From Planctomycetota bacterium (GTDB lineage: Bacteria; Planctomycetota; Phycisphaerae; UBA1845), in the NCBI GenBank assembly GCA_024276605.1, contig JAJRWX010000050.1:5695-69694 (forward strand): a DNA stretch of 64,000 nucleotides, written 5' to 3'. The translations under genes were made by a program, and so were the position numbers. The notes below the pieces were generated by a model. The model was not told the DNA's origin. It did no database searches and saw only the letters and a program-made list of their open reading frames with translations. Shown here one piece after another: positions 19,161 through 57,417 of this stretch. Position 1 is the stretch's first letter. Each line of letters begins with the position of its first letter.

Positions 19161-19165
19161 AACGG

Positions 19166-19445
19166 GTGGCCCATGTCCTTTCTTTTGGACATGGGGGAAT
19201 CGATGATAAACATACAGCGTCAAGATGACGTCACTACGTCTGGGTGCCCCATCCTTCGGGTACTCCCGAAGGGTGGGGAATGGATCTTGTTTCCGGCAAC
19301 GCAAGTGTCACTATCATAGCACGCAACATCCGTCCCCCACCCTTTGCCAGTAGGCAAAGGATGGGGCACCCATGCATAGCACGCAACATTCTCACCCATG
19401 CGATCATCGACTCCCCCACCTCGAAAACGAGATGGGCCACCCACT
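19166..19445 (+). repeat. Composite hairpin-repeat cluster: family-4 hairpin, family-1 double-hairpin element at 19243-19373, inverted family-4 hairpin
   Basis: CCCATGTCC/GGACATGGG hairpin at 19170-19195, 10 nt after the stop. CCCATCCTTCGGG-TACT-CCCGAAGGGTGGG and CCCCACCCTTTGCC-AGTA-GGCAAAGGATGGGG stems follow. Near-identical copies occur at 28378, 37519 and 38356. Confidence 0.75.
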
Positions 19446-21321: not shown

Positions 21322-21503
21322 GGGCTTGAGTGGGGTGGCATGGACAAGCGTCGCGTTTAAGGGATCGCAGATGAAAAGAGGCGTAGGAGCGACGCTTGCC
21401 CGTGCTTTTCATCGGTTGCGCTCGCACGGGCAAACGCAGCGAGCAGCATCCATTGGACATTCGACAGCCCGATTCCGCGGCGTTTGTCCATGCCACCCTC
21501 ACG
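21322..21503 (+). repeat. MITE-like element (family 5, copy a) with ~27-bp terminal inverted repeats
   Basis: GAGTGGGGTGGCATGGACAAGCGTCGC (21328-21354) is nearly the reverse complement of GCGGCGTTTGTCCATGCCACCCTCACG (21477-21503). An internal GCCCGTGC/GCACGGGC hairpin is present. It is homologous to 24075-24222. Confidence 0.55.
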
Positions 21504-24074: not shown

Positions 24075-24222
24075 TGGGCTTGAGTGGGGTGGCATAGACA
24101 TGCGTCGCGGGCAAAGTGTCGCAGATTCTGAAAAGGCGTCTGTGGCGACGATGGCCTGCCTCGGCAGTAAAAATGGGGTGGAGCTACAACGCAGCGGGTT
24201 TCAGATTCCGCAGCCACCACTT
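24075..24222 (+). repeat. Family-5 repeat, copy b (diverged, right end truncated)
   Basis: GGGCTTGAGTGGGGTGGCATAGACATGCGTCGCG plus internal blocks TCGCAGAT, GAAAAGGCGT, ACGCAGCG and GATTCCGC are shared with 21322-21503 in the same orientation. Confidence 0.5.
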
Positions 24223-28356: not shown

Positions 28357-28377
28357 TGCGCCGCATGCATAGAATAT

Positions 28378-28711
28378 GTGCCCCATCCTTCGGGTACTCC
28401 CGAAGGGTGGGGGACGGATCTTGCGTCGAAAGGCATCGCAAGTGACACTATTATGTCACGAAACGTCCTTCCCCCCACCCGCTGATCCGAGCCGGTAGCG
28501 CCAGCGCCCGGTGTTTTCGGATAGTCACGCGCTGCGCATGTTCTACGTGATTGCGGCGTGTATGGCGTTTTGAAGACACGGGTCGCTTGCGCTCGCCGCT
28601 CGGATTAGTGGGGGATATATCTTGTTTAGCATGGTATTACAAGTGTCACTACTATTGCTCATGGCATCCTTCCCCCATCCTTTGCCGGTAGGCAAAGGAT
28701 GGGGCACCCGC
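28378..28711 (+). repeat. Nested repeat cluster: family-1 5' part (28378-28480), family-2 element (28484-28612), family-1 3' part (28639-28711)
   Basis: The first hairpin and middle of family 1 are followed by a ~130-bp element homologous in inverted orientation to 38619-38757. The middle and second hairpin of family 1 then follow. Confidence 0.7.
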
Positions 28712-36358: not shown

Positions 36359-36425
36359 GGGTGGCATGGGTAAGTCCCGATGTATCCCGACGTAAAGTCG
36401 GGATACATCGGGACTTACCCGTGTA
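36359..36425. repeat. GGGTGGCATG box followed by a perfect 24-bp-stem hairpin
   Basis: GGGTAAGTCCCGATGTATCCCGAC (36368-36391), loop GTAAA, then GTCGGGATACATCGGGACTTACCC (36397-36420). It lies between two co-oriented lipoprotein genes. Confidence 0.85.
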
Positions 36426-37152: not shown

Positions 37153-37319
37153 CGTTTGCCCGCGCTCCATTATACGATCTTCGAACGTATCTAACTCTAC
37201 TGAACCTAACAGCAGCATACACCACTTCCCCCCAAAACACGAGACATCGCTAATGCCTCGTCGTGCATCATGGGACCGATCTTACGATCCGCAACCATCT
37301 GGGACTGACAAATCCGGGT

Positions 37320-37770
37320 AGGGCAGATCGTTCTTTCGCTAATGCAATAAGCATTTGCGAAAGGTTGACCTGCCTGAAATCATCAAGCTTCGGACTTCTG
37401 CACCATCAAGCGCACGTCGGCATGAGGTTTAGGTTAGACGTAGGTCAGCGCCGGGTGGCCCATCTCCTTTGGAGGTGGGAGAGACGATGATTGCGGGTTA
37501 CATCACATCATGCACAGGGTGCCCCATCCATTGGGTACTCCCAAAGGGTGGGGGACGGATCATGTGTCGAAAGGTACCACAAGTGTCACTGTCATTGCAC
37601 GGACTATCCTTCCCCCACCCTTTGCCAGTAGGCAAAAGATGGGGCACCCGCTTGTCCGCAGGCTGGCGCCGTGCGGCTCTGATTTGACATTCCACCGGTT
37701 GCAAGTATCTATGGCTACAGGCAGGTCAACCTTTCGCCAATTTTGGATTGGCGAAAGAACGACCCGCCCT
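37320..37770. repeat. Mosaic of hairpin repeats: family 3 inverted (37320-37374), family 4 (about 37457-37490), family 1 (37519-37651), family 3 (37655-37770)
   Basis: Each block has near-identical counterparts at 19166-19445, 28378-28711 and 38356-38960. Family 3 forms GGCAGGTCAACCTTTCGC...GCGAAAGAACGACCYGCC. Confidence 0.7.
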
Positions 37771-37797
37771 AAAGTTATCCCACATCACGAGTGTTGA

Positions 37798-38310
37798 TTA
37801 ACGCAACAGCACCATCGCGACGACTTTGTATCCCCATCCCGCCAGCACGAGCGCTACGCACACCAACCCCAATTGAAATGGCGACACACGAAACCAGTTG
37901 ATCCGCCACATCCGCCCGGTCAGCGCCGCCGTCATCGCAACGACGCCCACCACAAACACCATCAAAGCCGCAAGTAACCCGGTTGGCTGAGCATAAAACG
38001 CTAGGATCACCTCACCCCGCACCGCATGAGAAAAAGCCGTCGTCATCCCACAGGTCGGACAAGGATACCCCGTCATCATGACCAAACTACACGGGGCTAA
38101 GCCAAGCTGACGATGCGTCCCCAATCCGCGTGCATCCGGACTCAAAGTCCACGCGACGGCAAGCAGACCAAAGCAGATTAGCCCCAAAACCAACGCCCAT
38201 AATCGGGTATATGACGTAGCTTTATGCTCAAGACGCATCATCACCGGCCCAAGCGGATGCCCACGCGTGGCTTGATGTTCGCTAGAGGTTGACTGATCCA
38301 TGTGTGGCAT
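37798..38310 (-). CDS. DUF2752-like membrane protein
   Basis: GYPCPTCGMTTAF motif with four hydrophobic helices. Confidence 0.6.
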   Translation of the reverse strand: MPHMDQSTSSEHQATRGHPLGPVMMRLEHKATSYTRLWALVLGLICFGLLAVAWTLSPDARGLGTHRQLGLAPCSLVMMTGYPCPTCGMTTAFSHAVRGEVILAFYAQPTGLLAALMVFVVGVVAMTAALTGRMWRINWFRVSPFQLGLVCVALVLAGWGYKVVAMVLLR

Positions 38311-38355
38311 GAGTTGACCAATACATTATGCAACGTTCACGGTAATGCCGCATGG

Positions 38356-38960
38356 GTGCCCCATTCTTCGGGTACTCCCGAAGGGTGGGGGACGGATCTT
38401 GTGTCAAAAGACGTCTCACATGTCACTGTAATGGCACTTCTCATCCTTCCCCCATCCTTTGCCAGTAGGCAAAGGATGGGCACCCGCAGCTGTAGAGCAG
38501 GTCGTTCTCTCGCCCCAAAGCGAAAGGTTGATCTGCTTTTATTATAACACATCGATCTTTCTTTGGGGTGCGATGTCCGGTCGTGCGACGGACTTGGTGG
38601 TCAATCTCGTTTTGAGGTGGGGGAGACCAAATCCGAGCGGCGAGCGCGAGCGACCCGTGTCTTTAACACGCCATACACACCGCAATCGCCTAGAACATTC
38701 ACAGCGTGGGTGATCATCCGAAGACACTAGGCGTTGGCGACTCAGGTGCTCATTCGGTTACGAACCAAGAGTCGACGTGCGGAGGTCCGCAGGCTGGCGC
38801 CGTGCGGCTCTGATTCGGTATTCCCGTTGGTTGCGCGTGCCGATGGTTACGGCAGGTCAACCTTTCGCAAATTGGCATTGGCGAAAGAACGACCTGCCCT
38901 ACCGACTTGGCACTTGCTGCATATCATCGTCTTCCCCATGTCCAAAAGGAAGGATATGGG
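38356..38960. repeat. Mosaic of hairpin repeats: family 1 (38356-38487), family 3 inverted (38497-38536), family 4 (about 38598-38628), family 2 (38619-38757), family 3 (38786-38900), family 4 inverted (38925-38957)
   Basis: Blocks were aligned by eye to the other loci. The ORFs called here on both strands (PHPSGVPEEWG, PILCLLAKDGG) are mirror translations of the hairpins. Confidence 0.7.
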
Positions 38961-39162
38961 CCACTCACCGAGTTAGCGAGGCAGGAAAATCATTTTCAGC
39001 TATGTGATTGCCAACCACGCACAAGGTACTATACTCCACCCTGTTTGACATTTGGGCGTGCGGTGCCTGAGCTTGTCAAGCTAGCTTGTCAAACTGGTAC
39101 GGATATTGCTCGCTGTTTTTTGAGTATATTACATTCTCCATACTACGTGGAAGGAGTCGGCT

Positions 39163-53022: not shown

Positions 53023-56000
53023 ATGTCAAGTCGCTGTTGTCTGCCTATAGTGTTCGCGGCTGTTTATTTTCTACCGACGCAGGCCGTCGCGGTTATATCT
53101 ATTAGTCCCCAGCCGGGCTTTGGTATTGTTGAGATTGGCACTGAGGGGGAATTCTCTAACAGTCCCGTACCCGATAATGTGGCTCGGGCCTCGCGCGGCG
53201 CCGTGCCTTTTGGCGATTTCGAAGAGGGCGTCACATTCCTGATCCAAAACATCAACGATGGGCAATATGGGAATCTTAGCTCATGGCAAAGCAATTCTGC
53301 TGCTGGCGCGTATGTGGGCGTTGTATTTGCTGACCCGGTCGTCATTTGTTCGATCGCCTGGGGGCGAGACAACAATAGTCCTCAGAATATCGACGTGGGC
53401 CGCTGGCAAGATTCATATACACTCGAGATATCCTCCGACCCCAATGTTGCTTCTGACCCCGCAAATGCATCATGGACAACGGTTGGTACTGTTACATACT
53501 CTTTACCGCTAAATGGTCGAAAGTTATGGCTTCGCCATGAATATCGAATGTCTGAACTTGGTAACCCCATCGAGGCACGCGCGTTTCGTATTAAAGTCAC
53601 CAATGCGTTTATACGCATTGACGAAATCGAAGTTTATGCTGCTGCTCCAGCAAAAACTTTGTTTGTTGACGCCGATGTACCCGGTCCGGGAGACGGGCTG
53701 ACGTGGTCCACAGCGTTTAACAGTCTGCCAGACGCACTTGCCTTGGCGAGCTGTAATGTTGAAACCATTCGCGTGGCGCAGGGAACGTACATGCCCGACG
53801 GTGCCCGTATTGGCGACTCCGGATATCGGGCTGGCTCTGGTGATAAGACGGCTACAATTCAATTGATAGATGGTGTCAGGCTTGAGGGTGGGTACGCTGG
53901 TTTTGGCGAAGTGGACCCGGACCTGCGAGATGTGGTCGCGTTCCCGACGATATTAAGCGGCGACCTGAGCGGCGATGACGCGTCGGTTGCGAATCCCGTT
54001 GATTTATTGACGGAGGCTACGCGGGTAGAGAATAGCGATCATGTGGTGACGGGCAGCAACACGGATGCGACGGCTGTCATTGATGGGTTTACCATCGCAT
54101 ATGCAAATGCCATGAATGCACCCAACACCGCAGGCGGCGGTATGCTCATTGAGTTGGGTAGCCCTACGGTAAGCAACTGCACCTTCCTCGAAAACATCGC
54201 CGCGGGCGCTTCCGGCATGTGGATCGACCAAGGCGATCCGGTTGTGACAGACTGCGCGTTTACCAGAAACGCGGCAACCTCTTCCGCCGGGTTGGGCATG
54301 ACTCGCTCCAACAACCCGAGCGTGACGAATTGTGCATTTACAGATAATGCGTCCACCTTTAGCAACGGCGGTGGGATGTTCATTGATCAATCCAGTCCCA
54401 CAGTGACCAACTGCACATTCACTGGAAACTCTACGGACGCTAATGGCGGCGGCTTATACGCTGTAGGTAGCCATCCGGTCATTACCGACTGTACGTTTAC
54501 TCAAAATATGGCGGGCGTAGGCGGTGGTGGTCTTTATGTCACAACACTTGGTCAGGTAGACATCCACTCGATTGTGACCAATTGCCGTTTTATCGATAAC
54601 TCCGCTATGACCGGGGGCGGGATATATGCTTTTACTGCTGATGTTACACACAACAATTTAACAATTAATAATAGTAGCTTTAGCGGAAATACGTCGGCCA
54701 GCGGGGGCGGTGTAGCGATTCGTGACAGCAACTTGACAGCGATCAACTGTGCGTTCGATGGGAATCATTCCAGTGGGGACGGCGGCGCGATAAATTTCAA
54801 GCGTGTTAACCCCATTCAAACAGTTGGCATGGTGTCGGCAGCGGTGACGAACTGCGTGTTCCATATGAATACGGCAGCCGGTAATGGGGGCGCGCTGAAC
54901 GGTGTCATTGGCGCCAGCAACTCAGCCGGAGCGATCGTATCGGTAGAGGCGGAGATAGCTGTGACAAACAGCACGTTCAATGGGAATTCCGCGATCGGTA
55001 ACGGCGGCGCGATGGGCTATGCCGTCGGGAACGTGACTACCACAGGCGCGACACCAACCGTTTCTTTGGCGGTAACGGTATCAAACTGCATTATATGGGG
55101 TAACGCCTCTGCAGATAGCAAGCAGATAACCAATTCGATGGTTTCTCCGACACCTGTTATCCAATACTGCGATGTTGATGGTTCTGGTGGCAGTGGCACA
55201 GGGTGGGATACTACCCTTGGCATCGATGGGGGTGGCAACATCGACGCTGATCCGCTTTTTGTGGGCGTTAATGACCTCCAATTATCACCTGGTTCTCCAT
55301 GTATTGACAGTGCTCATTCCGGATTTTACGGCGCTGGCCCTTCAGTGGATATTACTGGTCATGACCGCATCTTTGATGATCCGGCGACGCTTAATACGGG
55401 TGGCGGCGGAGCATCTTTTCTTGATATGGGCGCGTATGAATTTTCGAGCAATAGCGGCCCGGGGTTTGCGGCTGCGGACCTCGACGCTGACGGCGACGTT
55501 GATGCGGATGATTACTTTATCTTTCATGGCGACTTTAACAGCGCAGCACGTTCGTCGGGTCGAACTTTTACTATGTCTAGGCGCGATGTCGGAATAACCT
55601 GGTTTGTTGACGCCGATGCTACCGGCCTGGCTGATGGCTTGAATTGGACCAATGCGTTCACTCATCCGCAAGATGCCCTCGCAACGGCACTCACCGGCGA
55701 CACGATTCGCGTGGCGCAAGGCACTTACATGCCAGACGGCGGGCGCATTGGTGATGCCGGCTTTGTGGCAGGTACGGGCGATCGGACGGCTACATTTCAA
55801 CTGATCGACGATGTAAGGATTGAAGGCGGGTACGCGGGCTTTGGCGAGGTAAACCCAGACCTGCGAGATGTGGTAGCGAACCTAACTATCCTTAGCGGCG
55901 ACTTAGGCAACGATGACATCGCAGTGGCAGACCCCGCAGATTTGGTCACCGAGCCTACGCGCGTTGAGAATAGCCATCATGTGGTGACGGGAAGCAATAC

Positions 56001-57417
56001 GATGGCGACGGCAGTCATTGACGGGTTTACGATCCGCGCCGGAAATACAACCGGGGCATCGTTCATATTTGGTGGCGGGATGACGATCGAACCAGGCAGT
56101 CCGACGATAAGTAATTGCCACTTCCTTGAAAACTTCGCGTCATTCGCTGGTGGTGGCATGTGGGTTAATCAAGGCGATCCTGTTGTTTCCAACTGCACTT
56201 TTACCCGAAACTCGTCCACTGCTGGCGCCGGGATGGTTATTCGAAATACCAACAATACGGTCTTGACGAATTGCATGTTTATCGGGAACACGGCTATTAC
56301 AGCCGGTGGATTTGGTGGTGGGTTGTTTAACTCAGCAAGCAGCCCCACGGTGACCGGCTGCACGTTCGTAGGAAATACGGCTGAGCGCGGTGCTGGGATG
56401 AGTAATGAGTTAGCCAATCCGAATGTGATCGACTGCATGTTTAACGGGAACGTAGCTGTGAGTACGGGTGGAGGCGTTAACAATAATATTTCCGGCGATC
56501 CGATATTCACAAACTGCGTTTTTTTAGAAAACACAGCCATCTCTGGAGGCGCTATATACAGCACTGGAGGGAATGGCGAGTTCATCAATTTAACCGTCTC
56601 AAATTGCTCCTTTACAGGAAACGCCTCGACATTTAGCGGCAGTGCAGTCTTTGGCAGTAACGGCCAGTTATCCATGAGCAACAGCACCTTCGATGCCAAT
56701 ACCGCAGGCGGTAGTGGTACCTTAGGTTACGCTGATGACTATAACGTGGTGGTGACAAACTGCGTGTTCAATGGGAATGATGTAGGAAGCGAAGGTGGTG
56801 CGATGGAATTCAGGGACGGAGCTAATTCAACGTCCACCTCTGAAATTAATAACTGCACGATTTTTGGGAATAATGCCCTTAGTGGTGGCGCATTGAGCTA
56901 TTTTATCAATGCAGGCTCTACGGGTACGGTGTCGAACAGTATTATTGGTAACAATACGGCTAAGGATGGTAAGCAGATTGCGATTGGCGGTACTTCTCTG
57001 CCGCCGGTTTTCCAATACAGCAACATCGCAGGGTCCGGGGGTAGCGGCGCGGGATGGGATGTCACACTTGGGATCGACGGTGGTCATAACATCGATGATG
57101 ACCCGCTGTTTGCAGGCATCAACGATTTTCGGTTGACGGCTGGCTCGCCGTGTATCGACAATGCTCATTTGGGATTCTACGGCGAAGGACCATCTGTTGA
57201 CCTTGATGGCAACGACCGCTTGAGAGACGACCCAGCTACGCCTAATACGGGTGTTGGTGCAGCGACATATCTCGATATGGGTGCCTATGAATTCCTGAGT
57301 GGCAGCCCAAAACTTGCCCGGGCAGACCTCGACCAAGACGGCGATGTGGATATGAAGGACTACTCAATTTTCATAAACTGCTATAGCGGCACATCAATCC
57401 CGACAAACTGCCCCTGA
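53023..57417 (+). CDS. Giant secreted protein (1464 aa): discoidin-like N-terminal domain plus two ~640-aa parallel beta-helix (PbH1) modules, each ending in a dockerin-like segment
   Basis: Signal peptide present. Repeated NCTFTGNSA..GGG turns occur throughout. Modules begin with FVDAD at 53662 and at 55603. ADLDADGDVDADDY and ADLDQDGDVDMKDY mark the module ends. Confidence 0.75.
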   Translation: MSSRCCLPIVFAAVYFLPTQAVAVISISPQPGFGIVEIGTEGEFSNSPVPDNVARASRGAVPFGDFEEGVTFLIQNINDGQYGNLSSWQSNSAAGAYVGVVFADPVVICSIAWGRDNNSPQNIDVGRWQDSYTLEISSDPNVASDPANASWTTVGTVTYSLPLNGRKLWLRHEYRMSELGNPIEARAFRIKVTNAFIRIDEIEVYAAAPAKTLFVDADVPGPGDGLTWSTAFNSLPDALALASCNVETIRVAQGTYMPDGARIGDSGYRAGSGDKTATIQLIDGVRLEGGYAGFGEVDPDLRDVVAFPTILSGDLSGDDASVANPVDLLTEATRVENSDHVVTGSNTDATAVIDGFTIAYANAMNAPNTAGGGMLIELGSPTVSNCTFLENIAAGASGMWIDQGDPVVTDCAFTRNAATSSAGLGMTRSNNPSVTNCAFTDNASTFSNGGGMFIDQSSPTVTNCTFTGNSTDANGGGLYAVGSHPVITDCTFTQNMAGVGGGGLYVTTLGQVDIHSIVTNCRFIDNSAMTGGGIYAFTADVTHNNLTINNSSFSGNTSASGGGVAIRDSNLTAINCAFDGNHSSGDGGAINFKRVNPIQTVGMVSAAVTNCVFHMNTAAGNGGALNGVIGASNSAGAIVSVEAEIAVTNSTFNGNSAIGNGGAMGYAVGNVTTTGATPTVSLAVTVSNCIIWGNASADSKQITNSMVSPTPVIQYCDVDGSGGSGTGWDTTLGIDGGGNIDADPLFVGVNDLQLSPGSPCIDSAHSGFYGAGPSVDITGHDRIFDDPATLNTGGGGASFLDMGAYEFSSNSGPGFAAADLDADGDVDADDYFIFHGDFNSAARSSGRTFTMSRRDVGITWFVDADATGLADGLNWTNAFTHPQDALATALTGDTIRVAQGTYMPDGGRIGDAGFVAGTGDRTATFQLIDDVRIEGGYAGFGEVNPDLRDVVANLTILSGDLGNDDIAVADPADLVTEPTRVENSHHVVTGSNTMATAVIDGFTIRAGNTTGASFIFGGGMTIEPGSPTISNCHFLENFASFAGGGMWVNQGDPVVSNCTFTRNSSTAGAGMVIRNTNNTVLTNCMFIGNTAITAGGFGGGLFNSASSPTVTGCTFVGNTAERGAGMSNELANPNVIDCMFNGNVAVSTGGGVNNNISGDPIFTNCVFLENTAISGGAIYSTGGNGEFINLTVSNCSFTGNASTFSGSAVFGSNGQLSMSNSTFDANTAGGSGTLGYADDYNVVVTNCVFNGNDVGSEGGAMEFRDGANSTSTSEINNCTIFGNNALSGGALSYFINAGSTGTVSNSIIGNNTAKDGKQIAIGGTSLPPVFQYSNIAGSGGSGAGWDVTLGIDGGHNIDDDPLFAGINDFRLTAGSPCIDNAHLGFYGEGPSVDLDGNDRLRDDPATPNTGVGAATYLDMGAYEFLSGSPKLARADLDQDGDVDMKDYSIFINCYSGTSIPTNCP

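Follow-up and report, generated by a model that had tools for sequence, protein, structure and literature searches.

The 64-kb stretch of DNA analyzed here (hereafter, the window) is ordinary chromosome, carrying genes for cytochromes, a NUDIX protein, adenosylhomocysteinase (SAHH), Trk, and succinate dehydrogenase. Among these genes lie three complete elements of ~130 bp, which we designate family A (positions ~19241–19372, 37517–37651, and 38354–38487), and a composite family A region at 28376–28711. The original prediction described an intergenic family of double hairpins sharing one orientation, and this description stands: all family A elements of the window are intergenic and all nhmmer matches fall on the + strand, with E-values of 1e-42 to 1e-44 for the complete copies and 1e-30 to 1e-32 for two partial ones. 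The copies that it listed are all present, with a 22-nt core motif occurring four times and a 31-nt core motif three times in the window (0 expected in shuffles of either), and its consensus and stem lengths were likewise correct. A profile built from the family A copies and run over the whole window found no copies beyond the three complete and two partial ones. The features of the locus and the repeats surrounding the elements are listed in the table.

Table. Family A elements and neighboring repeats in the 64-kb window
Feature	Position	Strand	Basis or remark
Family B unit (GGGTGGCCCATGTCC…GGACATGGGGGA)	19162–19202	+	Repeat search and family alignment
Family A unit, copy 1, left: GGGTG foot, stem CCCCATCCTTCGGG, loop TACT, stem CCCGAAGGGTGGGG	19241–19288	+	Covariance model R1, 71.3 bits
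Spacer, copy 1; the other copies have homologous spacers, mean identity 66%	19284–19329	+	
Family A unit, copy 1, right, inverted; apex TTTGCC-TACT-GGCAAA	19325–19372	−	R1, 71.9 bits
15-nt CATAGCACGCAACAT, second copy (first copy at 19315–19329)	19376–19390	+	Perfect direct repeat around the right unit of copy 1 only
Family B unit, inverted partner of 19162–19202	19408–19444	−	Repeat search and family alignment
Truncated A element: full left unit (28375–28422), spacer, inner arm only of the right unit	28376–28481	+	nhmmer, model positions 2–107, E = 6e-32; R1, 73 bits
Family C repeat, ~130 bp, amid the two truncated A elements	28482–28607	−	31-nt core twice in the window, 0 expected; alignment
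Truncated A element: inner arm of the left unit, spacer, full right unit (28663–28710, −)	28608–28711	+	nhmmer, model positions 33–136, E = 2e-30; R1, 61.4 bits
Family E unit, classical GTAG-footed REP (GTAG-GGCAGATCGTTCTTTCGC…GCGAAAGGTTGACCTGCC)	37318–37380	+	
Family B unit adjoining copy 3	37451–37492	+	Weak R1 match, 12.1 bits
Family A element, copy 3; units 37516–37563 (+) and 37603–37650 (−)	37517–37649	+	Sequence, nhmmer, R1
Family F hairpin (GTCCGCAGGCTGGCGCCGTGCGG…)	37654–37693	+	Second copy at 38785–38824; F+E module after copy 3
Family E unit, foot TTAG	37715–37778	−	
Family A element, copy 4; units 38353–38400 (+) and 38440–38486 (−)	38354–38486	+	Sequence, nhmmer, R1
Family E unit, GTAG foot, immediately after copy 4	38490–38545	+	
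Degenerate family B unit, directly adjoining the second C copy	38594–38630	+	
Family C repeat, second copy	38626–38760	+	Core motif and alignment
Family E unit, GTAG foot	38846–38908	−	
Family B unit	38926–38968	−	

Inverted doublets within mosaics of intergenic repeats

The complete family A copies are 81% to 84% identical to one another, with a mean pairwise identity of 90% to 91% in the hairpins versus 66% in the spacer. Apart from the apical 4 bp (CGGG/CCCG versus TGCC/GGCA), hairpin 2 corresponds to hairpin 1 in reverse complement, and a repeat finder returned the left 44 to 56 nt as the reverse complement of the right 44 to 56 nt (79% to 84% complementary). The element is therefore an inverted pair of a single unit of ~40 nt, with a terminal inverted repeat (TIR) of 44 to 56 nt; in this doublet, the two units have their feet outward, with a spacer of ~48 nt between them. 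When the window was searched with R1, a covariance model of the unit, exactly 8 units emerged, with 4 on either strand, and all 8 are intergenic and arranged in inverted pairs. The composite region had been taken for one interrupted copy split across 28378–28711. It instead comprises two truncated copies, each with a spacer of its own, around a family C repeat. The junction of the C end, the inner arm, and the spacer is also found in a metagenome contig (L026), indicating that the mosaic is recurrent rather than a one-off.

Family A elements sit in mosaics resembling bacterial interspersed mosaic elements (BIMEs), in the company of hairpins from four further families (B, C, E, and F). Family B (GGGTGGCCCATSTC…GGGGGA) has its foot and basal stem in common with family A, and an inverted pair of B units brackets copy 1. 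Family E is represented in the window by four classical GTAG-type REPs (GTAG-GGCAGRTCGTTCTTTCGC…). The segment at 37219–39160 consists almost wholly of such repeats, arranged around one small gene.

The four elements of the window occupy four different gene contexts, namely, convergent, co-directional on the + strand, co-directional on the − strand, and divergent. One family A unit is located 19 nt past the stop codon of the SAHH gene, several units lie just 3′ of stop codons, and two elements in direct orientation bracket a 513-bp DUF2752 gene. The bracketed gene brings to mind integron attC sites, or other site-specific recombination sites marking gene cassettes, and the uniform orientation of these ~130-bp imperfect palindromes would fit such an arrangement. 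We nevertheless regard this explanation as exceedingly improbable: by inspection, the ends carry no core sites (RYYYAAC…GTTRRRY); the other intervals between copies span 9 kb and carry housekeeping genes on either strand; the intervening genes, including the DUF2752 gene, are syntenic in relatives free of the repeats; and a Pfam scan of 17 of the ~55 long open reading frames (ORFs) of the window identified no integrase. The elements themselves give rise to spurious ORFs with PHPSGTPEGWG and PLPVGKGWG peptides, confirming an earlier observation. When nine of these ORFs from across the elements were compared to Pfam, the only match was a chance one (E = 0.35), and with no meaningful match among the nine, the element does not correspond to a catalogued family of spurious proteins.

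Structure, polarity, and folding of the 40-nt unit

The family A unit combines the unpaired foot GGGTG on its 5′ side with an imperfect stem of 14 bp, extended by another 2 bp, and a TACT loop. A T·G wobble is conserved within the 14-bp stem, which is bounded by a conserved G·G mismatch (18 of 20 units) that sets the foot apart. To one orientation, we brought and aligned 19 units from the window and other sources (consensus, nGGGTGCCCCATCCTTCGGGTACTCCCGAAGGGTGGGGGACGG). The (G)GGTG foot, which differs from the canonical GTAG, is conserved, with alignment columns 4 to 6 nearly invariant, and the loop is TACT in all but one of the 19 units, the exception having TACC. Across the alignment, 96.4% of the cells of the named stem are paired, versus 49% to 65% with slid partners. 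The apical stem carries compensatory changes, three of its pairs having changed on both sides (CG→UA, GC→CG, and GC→CG).

R1 scores were 52 to 76 bits in the top orientation versus 13 to 29 bits in the reversed one; each unit is thus polar, and the two units of one element point in opposite ways. One particular strand of each unit is the folding strand. On the top strand of a set of 20 units, we counted 29 G·T cells versus 2 A·C cells; with the fixed columns excluded, the ratio is 11 to 2 (binomial p = 0.02, with relatedness among the units ignored). As RNA, the complete elements fold with −68 to −83 kcal/mol (z-scores of −6.9 to −9.4), equally on either strand, and DNA folding parameters yield the same picture, with both strands alike. 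The minimum-energy fold is usually a four-way junction with an outer stem (GGGTGCCCCATCC/GGATGGGGCACCC), a central stem (GGGTGGGGGACGGAT/ATCCTTCCCCCACCC), and two small apical hairpins; the other predicted fold comprises two 14-bp hairpins.

The original prediction hinted at a function at the RNA level, because the T:G pair of stem 1 would form a G:U wobble only in plus-strand RNA. This is true of hairpin 1, but not of the whole element: the wobble of stem 1 has as its mirror image, in stem 2 of copies 1 and 3, a C:A mismatch, which would be a G:U pair on the minus strand only, so that the element has no net strand bias. More broadly, the hairpins could act as terminators, 3′-end stabilizers, or a small RNA and could have spread through selection for that role. 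The folds are indeed very stable, well beyond those of shuffled sequences, the stems show compensatory changes, G·U-compatible changes prevail on one strand per unit, and some units directly follow stop codons, as at the SAHH gene. However, the units have opposite polarities within each doublet, the position relative to genes is inconsistent for both the window elements and the solo units found elsewhere, and close relatives keep the same genes and the same intergenic regions without the elements. G·T wobbles are tolerated in folded single-stranded DNA too, and the wobble asymmetry therefore does not single out RNA.

Annotation of regulatory signals points the same way. No T/U tract follows the stems, and no family A unit was called as a terminator; terminator-like sites in the window numbered 12, versus 20.9 expected. 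Promoter-like sites were not enriched, and the spacer yielded one weak sigma-70 promoter match (9/12) in one copy, not above background. Rfam models gave no match over the window at the gathering score, and at a permissive threshold only miRNA-hairpin noise emerged (19 to 24 bits versus thresholds of 72 to 78 bits). Because the two strands fold equally, the orientation relative to genes is inconsistent, and neither an Rfam match nor a U-tract accompanies the hairpins, a primary role in RNA is a weak proposition for the element as a whole, and we consider it quite improbable, although family A may have a secondary effect on transcripts.

Occurrence in other genomes and signs of mobility

The first scans, which used a 22-mer reaching into the spacer, returned 1 real match among genomes and 0 among metagenomes, and a later scan with a degenerate pattern restricted to the hairpins returned 12 real metagenome loci. 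The family is represented by one unit in the Planctomycetota metagenome-assembled genome (MAG) Dive96_bin1.127 and by units in 12 metagenome contigs, although two pairs of these contigs (L010/L012 and L013/L017) each seem to represent a single locus that was assembled twice. Most of the metagenomic units are solo, with unrelated flanks and differing G+C content, and a nearly identical 40-nt unit can be found in unrelated flanks. The presence of the element in other assemblies and in metagenomes shows that it is not an artifact, a concern raised when the family was first described. Searches of viral contigs and plasmids yielded no family A match.

Doublets with a homologous spacer are present in contigs L009, L016, L026, and L027, and contig L011 contains two units in direct orientation. 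Solo units outside the window lie sense, antisense, and upstream of genes, as judged from ORF maps. Translations of the element, used as queries, retrieved three spurious database proteins, P0121, P0122, and P0123. The first has the repeat order B-A-B-C, whereas the other two led to the doublets in L026 and L027, respectively. Spurious ORFs derived from the repeats have thus already entered protein databases. A unit is located at or close to the end of many related contigs, and family A repeats therefore probably also break MAG assemblies.

To place the elements in an evolutionary context, we compared the window with syntenic regions of three relatives (L003, L005, and L006) whose SAHH proteins share 92% to 94% identity with that of the window. 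The best matches belong to Planctomycetota. In all three, the intergenic region downstream of the SAHH gene and both those flanking the DUF2752 gene are present, without a family A element; one such region measures 35 bp in L005 versus 580 bp in the window. The DUF2752 gene occupies the same place in the relatives, free of repeats. The comparison loci, which amount to 117 kb (~69 kb from the three close relatives plus loci of other genomes bearing genes for REP-associated tyrosine transposases [RAYTs]), contain one unit, a solo in L005, versus 8 units in the 64-kb window, which shows a lineage-specific expansion of family A.

Contig L026 captures an insertion: a complete doublet interrupts a family C repeat, as seen in an alignment with the two intact C copies, and 12 to 13 nt of C (GCAATCGCCCAGG) occur twice, once at either end of the doublet, the two occurrences differing at 2 positions. 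A flanking repeat of this length has a frequency of ~0.004 in random flank pairs from the window. A doublet inserted so cleanly into a different repeat, and with duplication of its target, is notable for the biology of REPs and REPINs. A solo unit in L010 has an 11-nt flanking repeat, and the right unit of copy 1 is flanked by the 15-nt direct repeat listed in the table. No flanking duplication was found at the three complete elements of the window or at the composite, and the three repeats just described are of unequal length (11, 13, and 15 nt).

These duplications bring a different kind of element into consideration, a miniature inverted-repeat transposable element (MITE) of the DDE type, that is, an internally deleted insertion sequence (IS) whose 44- to 56-nt TIRs would be bound in trans by a DDE transposase, with duplication of the target. 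The long TIRs, the insertion of the L026 doublet as one piece with a 13-nt duplication, and the direct repeats at the L010 unit and at copy 1 are in line with this possibility, as is the presence of IS elements next to units in two contigs: in L001, an IS110-family element abuts a half-degraded family A unit, and in L020, an ISAs1-family insertion lies next to a solo unit. However, the ends of the L001 element appear to differ from the A arms, the ISAs1 insertion has its own unrelated TIR, and no IS bounded by A arms was encountered in ~200 kb of loci. The absence of duplications around the window elements and the variable length of those observed elsewhere also speak against a DDE transposase. 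Furthermore, solo 40-nt units are common and well conserved, as expected of REPs rather than MITEs, and the arms are hairpins with a conserved foot matching that of published REPs. Of the TIR and target-duplication signatures of a known MITE family, named at the outset as an outcome that would refute the original prediction, the TIR is present, the element being itself a long TIR; its affiliation is nevertheless with the REP/REPIN class and not with any known DDE-type MITE, and its duplications have no fixed length. On balance, an origin as a DDE-type MITE appears unlikely.

Transposition by HUH enzymes leaves no target duplication. The 13-nt repeat in L026, the 11-nt repeat in L010, and the 15-nt repeat at the right unit of copy 1 run counter to such duplication-free transposition. 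A more speculative scenario, to which we give little credence, is that the GGTG-footed A and B units belong to a REP class unusually conserved over uncultured marine Planctomycetota, in which the doublet moves by a route duplicating 11 to 15 nt or the four-way junction serves as a recombination substrate. If true, movement of doublets that leaves duplications would differ in mechanism from the canonical HUH "peel-and-paste" by which REPINs are assumed to spread.

Affinity to REP systems and comparison with known repeats

In our assessment, family A elements are likely REPIN-like inverted doublets of a REP-type (repetitive extragenic palindrome) unit, non-coding and non-autonomous, which spread in the genome of an uncultured marine planctomycete and whose units would be cut and joined in trans by a TnpA-REP enzyme. 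As inverted pairs of a selfish REP/REPIN-type palindrome, they are an ordinary bacterial repeat and do not constitute a new RNA gene. In the proposed mechanism, the units would be recognized as folded single-stranded DNA, with the doublet adopting either two hairpins or a four-way junction, and the cutting and joining in trans would fall to a cognate REP-associated tyrosine transposase of the HUH-Y1 type (TnpA-REP/RAYT), probably of subclass 2.1 or 2.2, whose gene would lie elsewhere in the genome. Effects on transcripts, such as 3′-end protection or termination, would be a by-product, if any. We infer this mobilization of folded single-stranded units from the homology of the foot and stem to published REPs.

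The search for the partner transposase covered the window and the loci retrieved from other assemblies. The Pfam scan of 17 of the ~55 long window ORFs detected no transposase, including none of the Y1 type, and none of the loci examined contained a tnpA(REP) gene flanked by family A units. In L020, the ISAs1-family insertion separates the solo unit from a Y1_Tnp gene (PF01797, 25.6 bits), for which we identified 75 homologues, proteins of 184 aa that include one annotated as RayT by JGI. In four homologue loci (L022–L025), the gene is flanked by GTGTGCCACTGCTCTTGAGCAGTG and its inverse, with no A units. This REP, which is absent from the window, resembles the PbraA01 REPs of Table S1 in PMC6006769. 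Since a different REP flanks the gene in all four loci, we rejected this RAYT clade as the family A partner. In L008, the unit directly adjoins what may be a truncated Y1 transposase (…GGAFDHVHALV…), but this candidate received no support from Pfam even at E = 10 and was dropped as well.

The closest published counterparts of the family A unit come from the classification of TnpA-Y1 proteins by Quentin et al. (2018; PMC6006769), who listed the REPs found beside tnpA(REP) genes in their Table S1. Comparison with REP and BIME sequences, an avenue already indicated in the original prediction, shows that the foot and basal stem of family A, GGTG-CCCCATYC…GGGTGGGG, match REPs of subclasses 2.1 and 2.2 in that collection. 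These include the subclass 2.2 REPs AcapA01 (ACO33629.1; GGGTG-CCCCATTCAAGCC-TGGTTTT-GGCTTGAGTGGGG) and AbacA01 (ABF42478.1; GGTG-CCCCATTCTAAG…CTTAGGGTGGGG) and the subclass 2.1 REP GmalA01 (AEU35143.1; GGTG-CCCCATCC…GGGTGGGG) (PMC6006769). Another subclass 2.2 REP, PlimA01 (ADG66729.1; GGTGG-CCCAGACGTC…GACGTCTGGG; PMC6006769), resembles family B of the window. As in these REPs, which are multi-copy imperfect palindromes of 30 to 53 nt, the family A foot is GGTG or GGGTG, the stem opens with CCCCAT(T/C)C and closes with (G/A)GTGGGG, and the T·G wobble occupies the same place. The codes AcapA01, AbacA01, and GmalA01 presumably denote strains of Acidobacteria. The similarity is confined to the foot and basal stem, about 20 of the 40 nt; the apical stem and TACT loop of family A are unrelated to those of the published REPs, the organisms differ, and no flanked tnpA(REP) gene was seen in the loci covered here. 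Nevertheless, the shared foot, first eight stem bases, closing GTGGGG, and wobble position place family A in the published REP type, and what is new in family A is the apical stem, the loop, and the host lineage. Family A opens no new class of system; with it, the GGTG-footed REP type, until now documented from cultured strains, where it accompanies tnpA(REP) genes, also includes uncultured marine Planctomycetota. A literature search on family A motif strings returned only unrelated primer matches.

Other REP groups show more distant likenesses. Di Nocera et al. (2013; PMC3733652) described GTAG- and CGTC-tagged REPs, as well as TIR repeats around tyrosine transposases, some of which are "double palindromic" (self-complementary), and the planctomycete R. 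baltica has several REP families and many tyrosine transposases (PMC3733652). Like the TIRtrons/TIRYT repeats, family A consists of self-complementary TIR repeats occurring as dimers and in clusters, and family E is a classical GTAG-footed REP; unlike the GTAG superfamily, family A units lack GTAG. CGTC-tagged REPs (families 1–4) have an unpaired CGTC tag, a stem of 8 to 9 bp, a 4- to 5-nt loop, and a CCA tail (PMC3733652). Assignment of family A to this group was rejected: the CGTC present on the opposite strand of most units overlaps the paired extension, the stem is 14 bp long, and there is no CCA tail.

Among elements of similar size, family A resembles Correia/NEMIS and ERIC in being intergenic, with inverted ends and folding into long hairpins. 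The latter are intergenic MITEs of ~100 to 150 bp with inverted ends and long hairpins, whose target duplications are short and of fixed length and whose halves are not known to occur on their own. Family A, by contrast, is mostly without duplications and occurs as solo halves.

REPINs are reportedly REP doublets that form hairpins, as described by Bertels and Rainey in 2011. Like REPINs and the BIMEs of E. coli, family A comprises two inverted units and a less conserved spacer that behave as one replicating unit, occurs also as singlets, and is found in intergenic, mosaic clusters with other REP types. It differs from them in that its units are longer (40 nt with a 14-bp stem, compared with 20 to 35 nt for typical REPs), its foot is GGTG rather than GTAG, a four-way-junction fold is possible, and one doublet is accompanied by a 13-nt target duplication.

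Sequences around A units

In a JGI 3300002231 contig (L026), a repeat of family C, a ~130-bp family mosaic with A, is interrupted by a complete A doublet (an inverted pair of A units, the ~40-nt GGGTG-footed REP-type hairpins, with a ~48-nt spacer). On either side of the doublet, 12–13 nt of family C are present (GCGATTGCCCAGG and GCAATCGCCCAGG), a target duplication that would not be expected of HUH-type REP mobilisation. In copy 1, a full A doublet of the window, a perfect 15-nt direct repeat (CATAGCACGCAACAT) brackets the right-hand unit alone; the inner copy of this repeat lies within the conserved spacer.

Insertion sequences were found beside A units at 2 other loci. At L001, an A unit with its outer arm replaced lies ~90 bp from the start of a transposase gene of the IS110 family, and a GGTGCCCCATGGA fragment lies ~220 bp beyond the end of the gene; the arrangement may represent an IS110/IS1111-type insertion into the A unit. 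At L020, an ISAs1-family IS with the TIR CAGGGCCAGCGC is inserted between a gene for a REP-associated tyrosine transposase (RAYT) and a solo A unit.

The adenosylhomocysteinase neighborhood and other features of the window

In one close relative (GCA_029260115.1; L006 and L007), genes of a Mu-like prophage (Mu-like_gpT, Mu-like_Pro_N, rve transposase, and AAA_22) immediately precede the methyltransferase–adenosylhomocysteinase (SAHH) pair; the window lacks these prophage genes. On the downstream side of SAHH, a small ORF is conserved between 2 relatives (L003 and L005), and an A/C mosaic takes its place in the window; the ORF may be a real small gene, lost or replaced in the window lineage.

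Other repeats were also observed. The start of family D, GGGCTTGAGTGGGGTGGCATGGACAAGCGTCGCG, is found again where L026 ends, and in L003 and L005 hairpins of a similar kind (GGGTGGCATGGG) lie 3′ of SAHH. A near-perfect palindrome of the GGCATGGGTAAG type is probably situated between two minus-strand genes, if the start of the downstream gene matches that of its L005 orthologue; a hairpin resembling this palindrome lies 3′ of the SAHH gene in L006. Elsewhere in the window, a 1464-aa ORF with long internal DNA repeats (300-nt blocks spaced 1.85–1.94 kb at 70–75% identity, and periodic 47-nt repeats) looks like a repeat-rich surface protein.

Coordinates of features in the window and compared loci
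Feature	Location	Strand	Details
15-nt direct repeat at right-hand unit of copy 1	window 19315-19329, 19376-19390
Family D repeat, first copy	window 21322-21498		inverted ends of 23 nt, 120 nt between
Family D repeat, second copy	window 24076-24126
Palindrome	window 36365-36423		arms 27 nt, 96% complementary; loop 5 nt
Repeat-rich ORF	window 53023-57417
IS110-family transposase gene	L001:2817-4270
Small ORF	L003:11477-11728	-	83 aa
Small ORF	L005:11500-11712	-	70 aa
Mu-like prophage genes	L006:1-8700
ISAs1-family IS	L020:468-1765
RAYT gene with REPs	L022:9700-10650
RAYT gene with REPs	L023:8760-9400
A doublet within family C	L026:1170-1500

RAYT genes and their REPs

At 4 loci from assemblies and metagenome contigs (L022–L025), genes for a 184-aa RAYT carry inverted GTGTGCCACTGCTCTTGAGCAGTG REPs on both sides, close to the start and stop codons with only a few bases between. 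Many homologues reside on contigs shorter than 1.5 kb, which would be expected if REPs cause breaks in assemblies. Judged by named homologues, the 4 loci probably derive from Planctomycetota, and their arrangements are textbook REPtrons, that is, RAYT genes flanked by their REPs.
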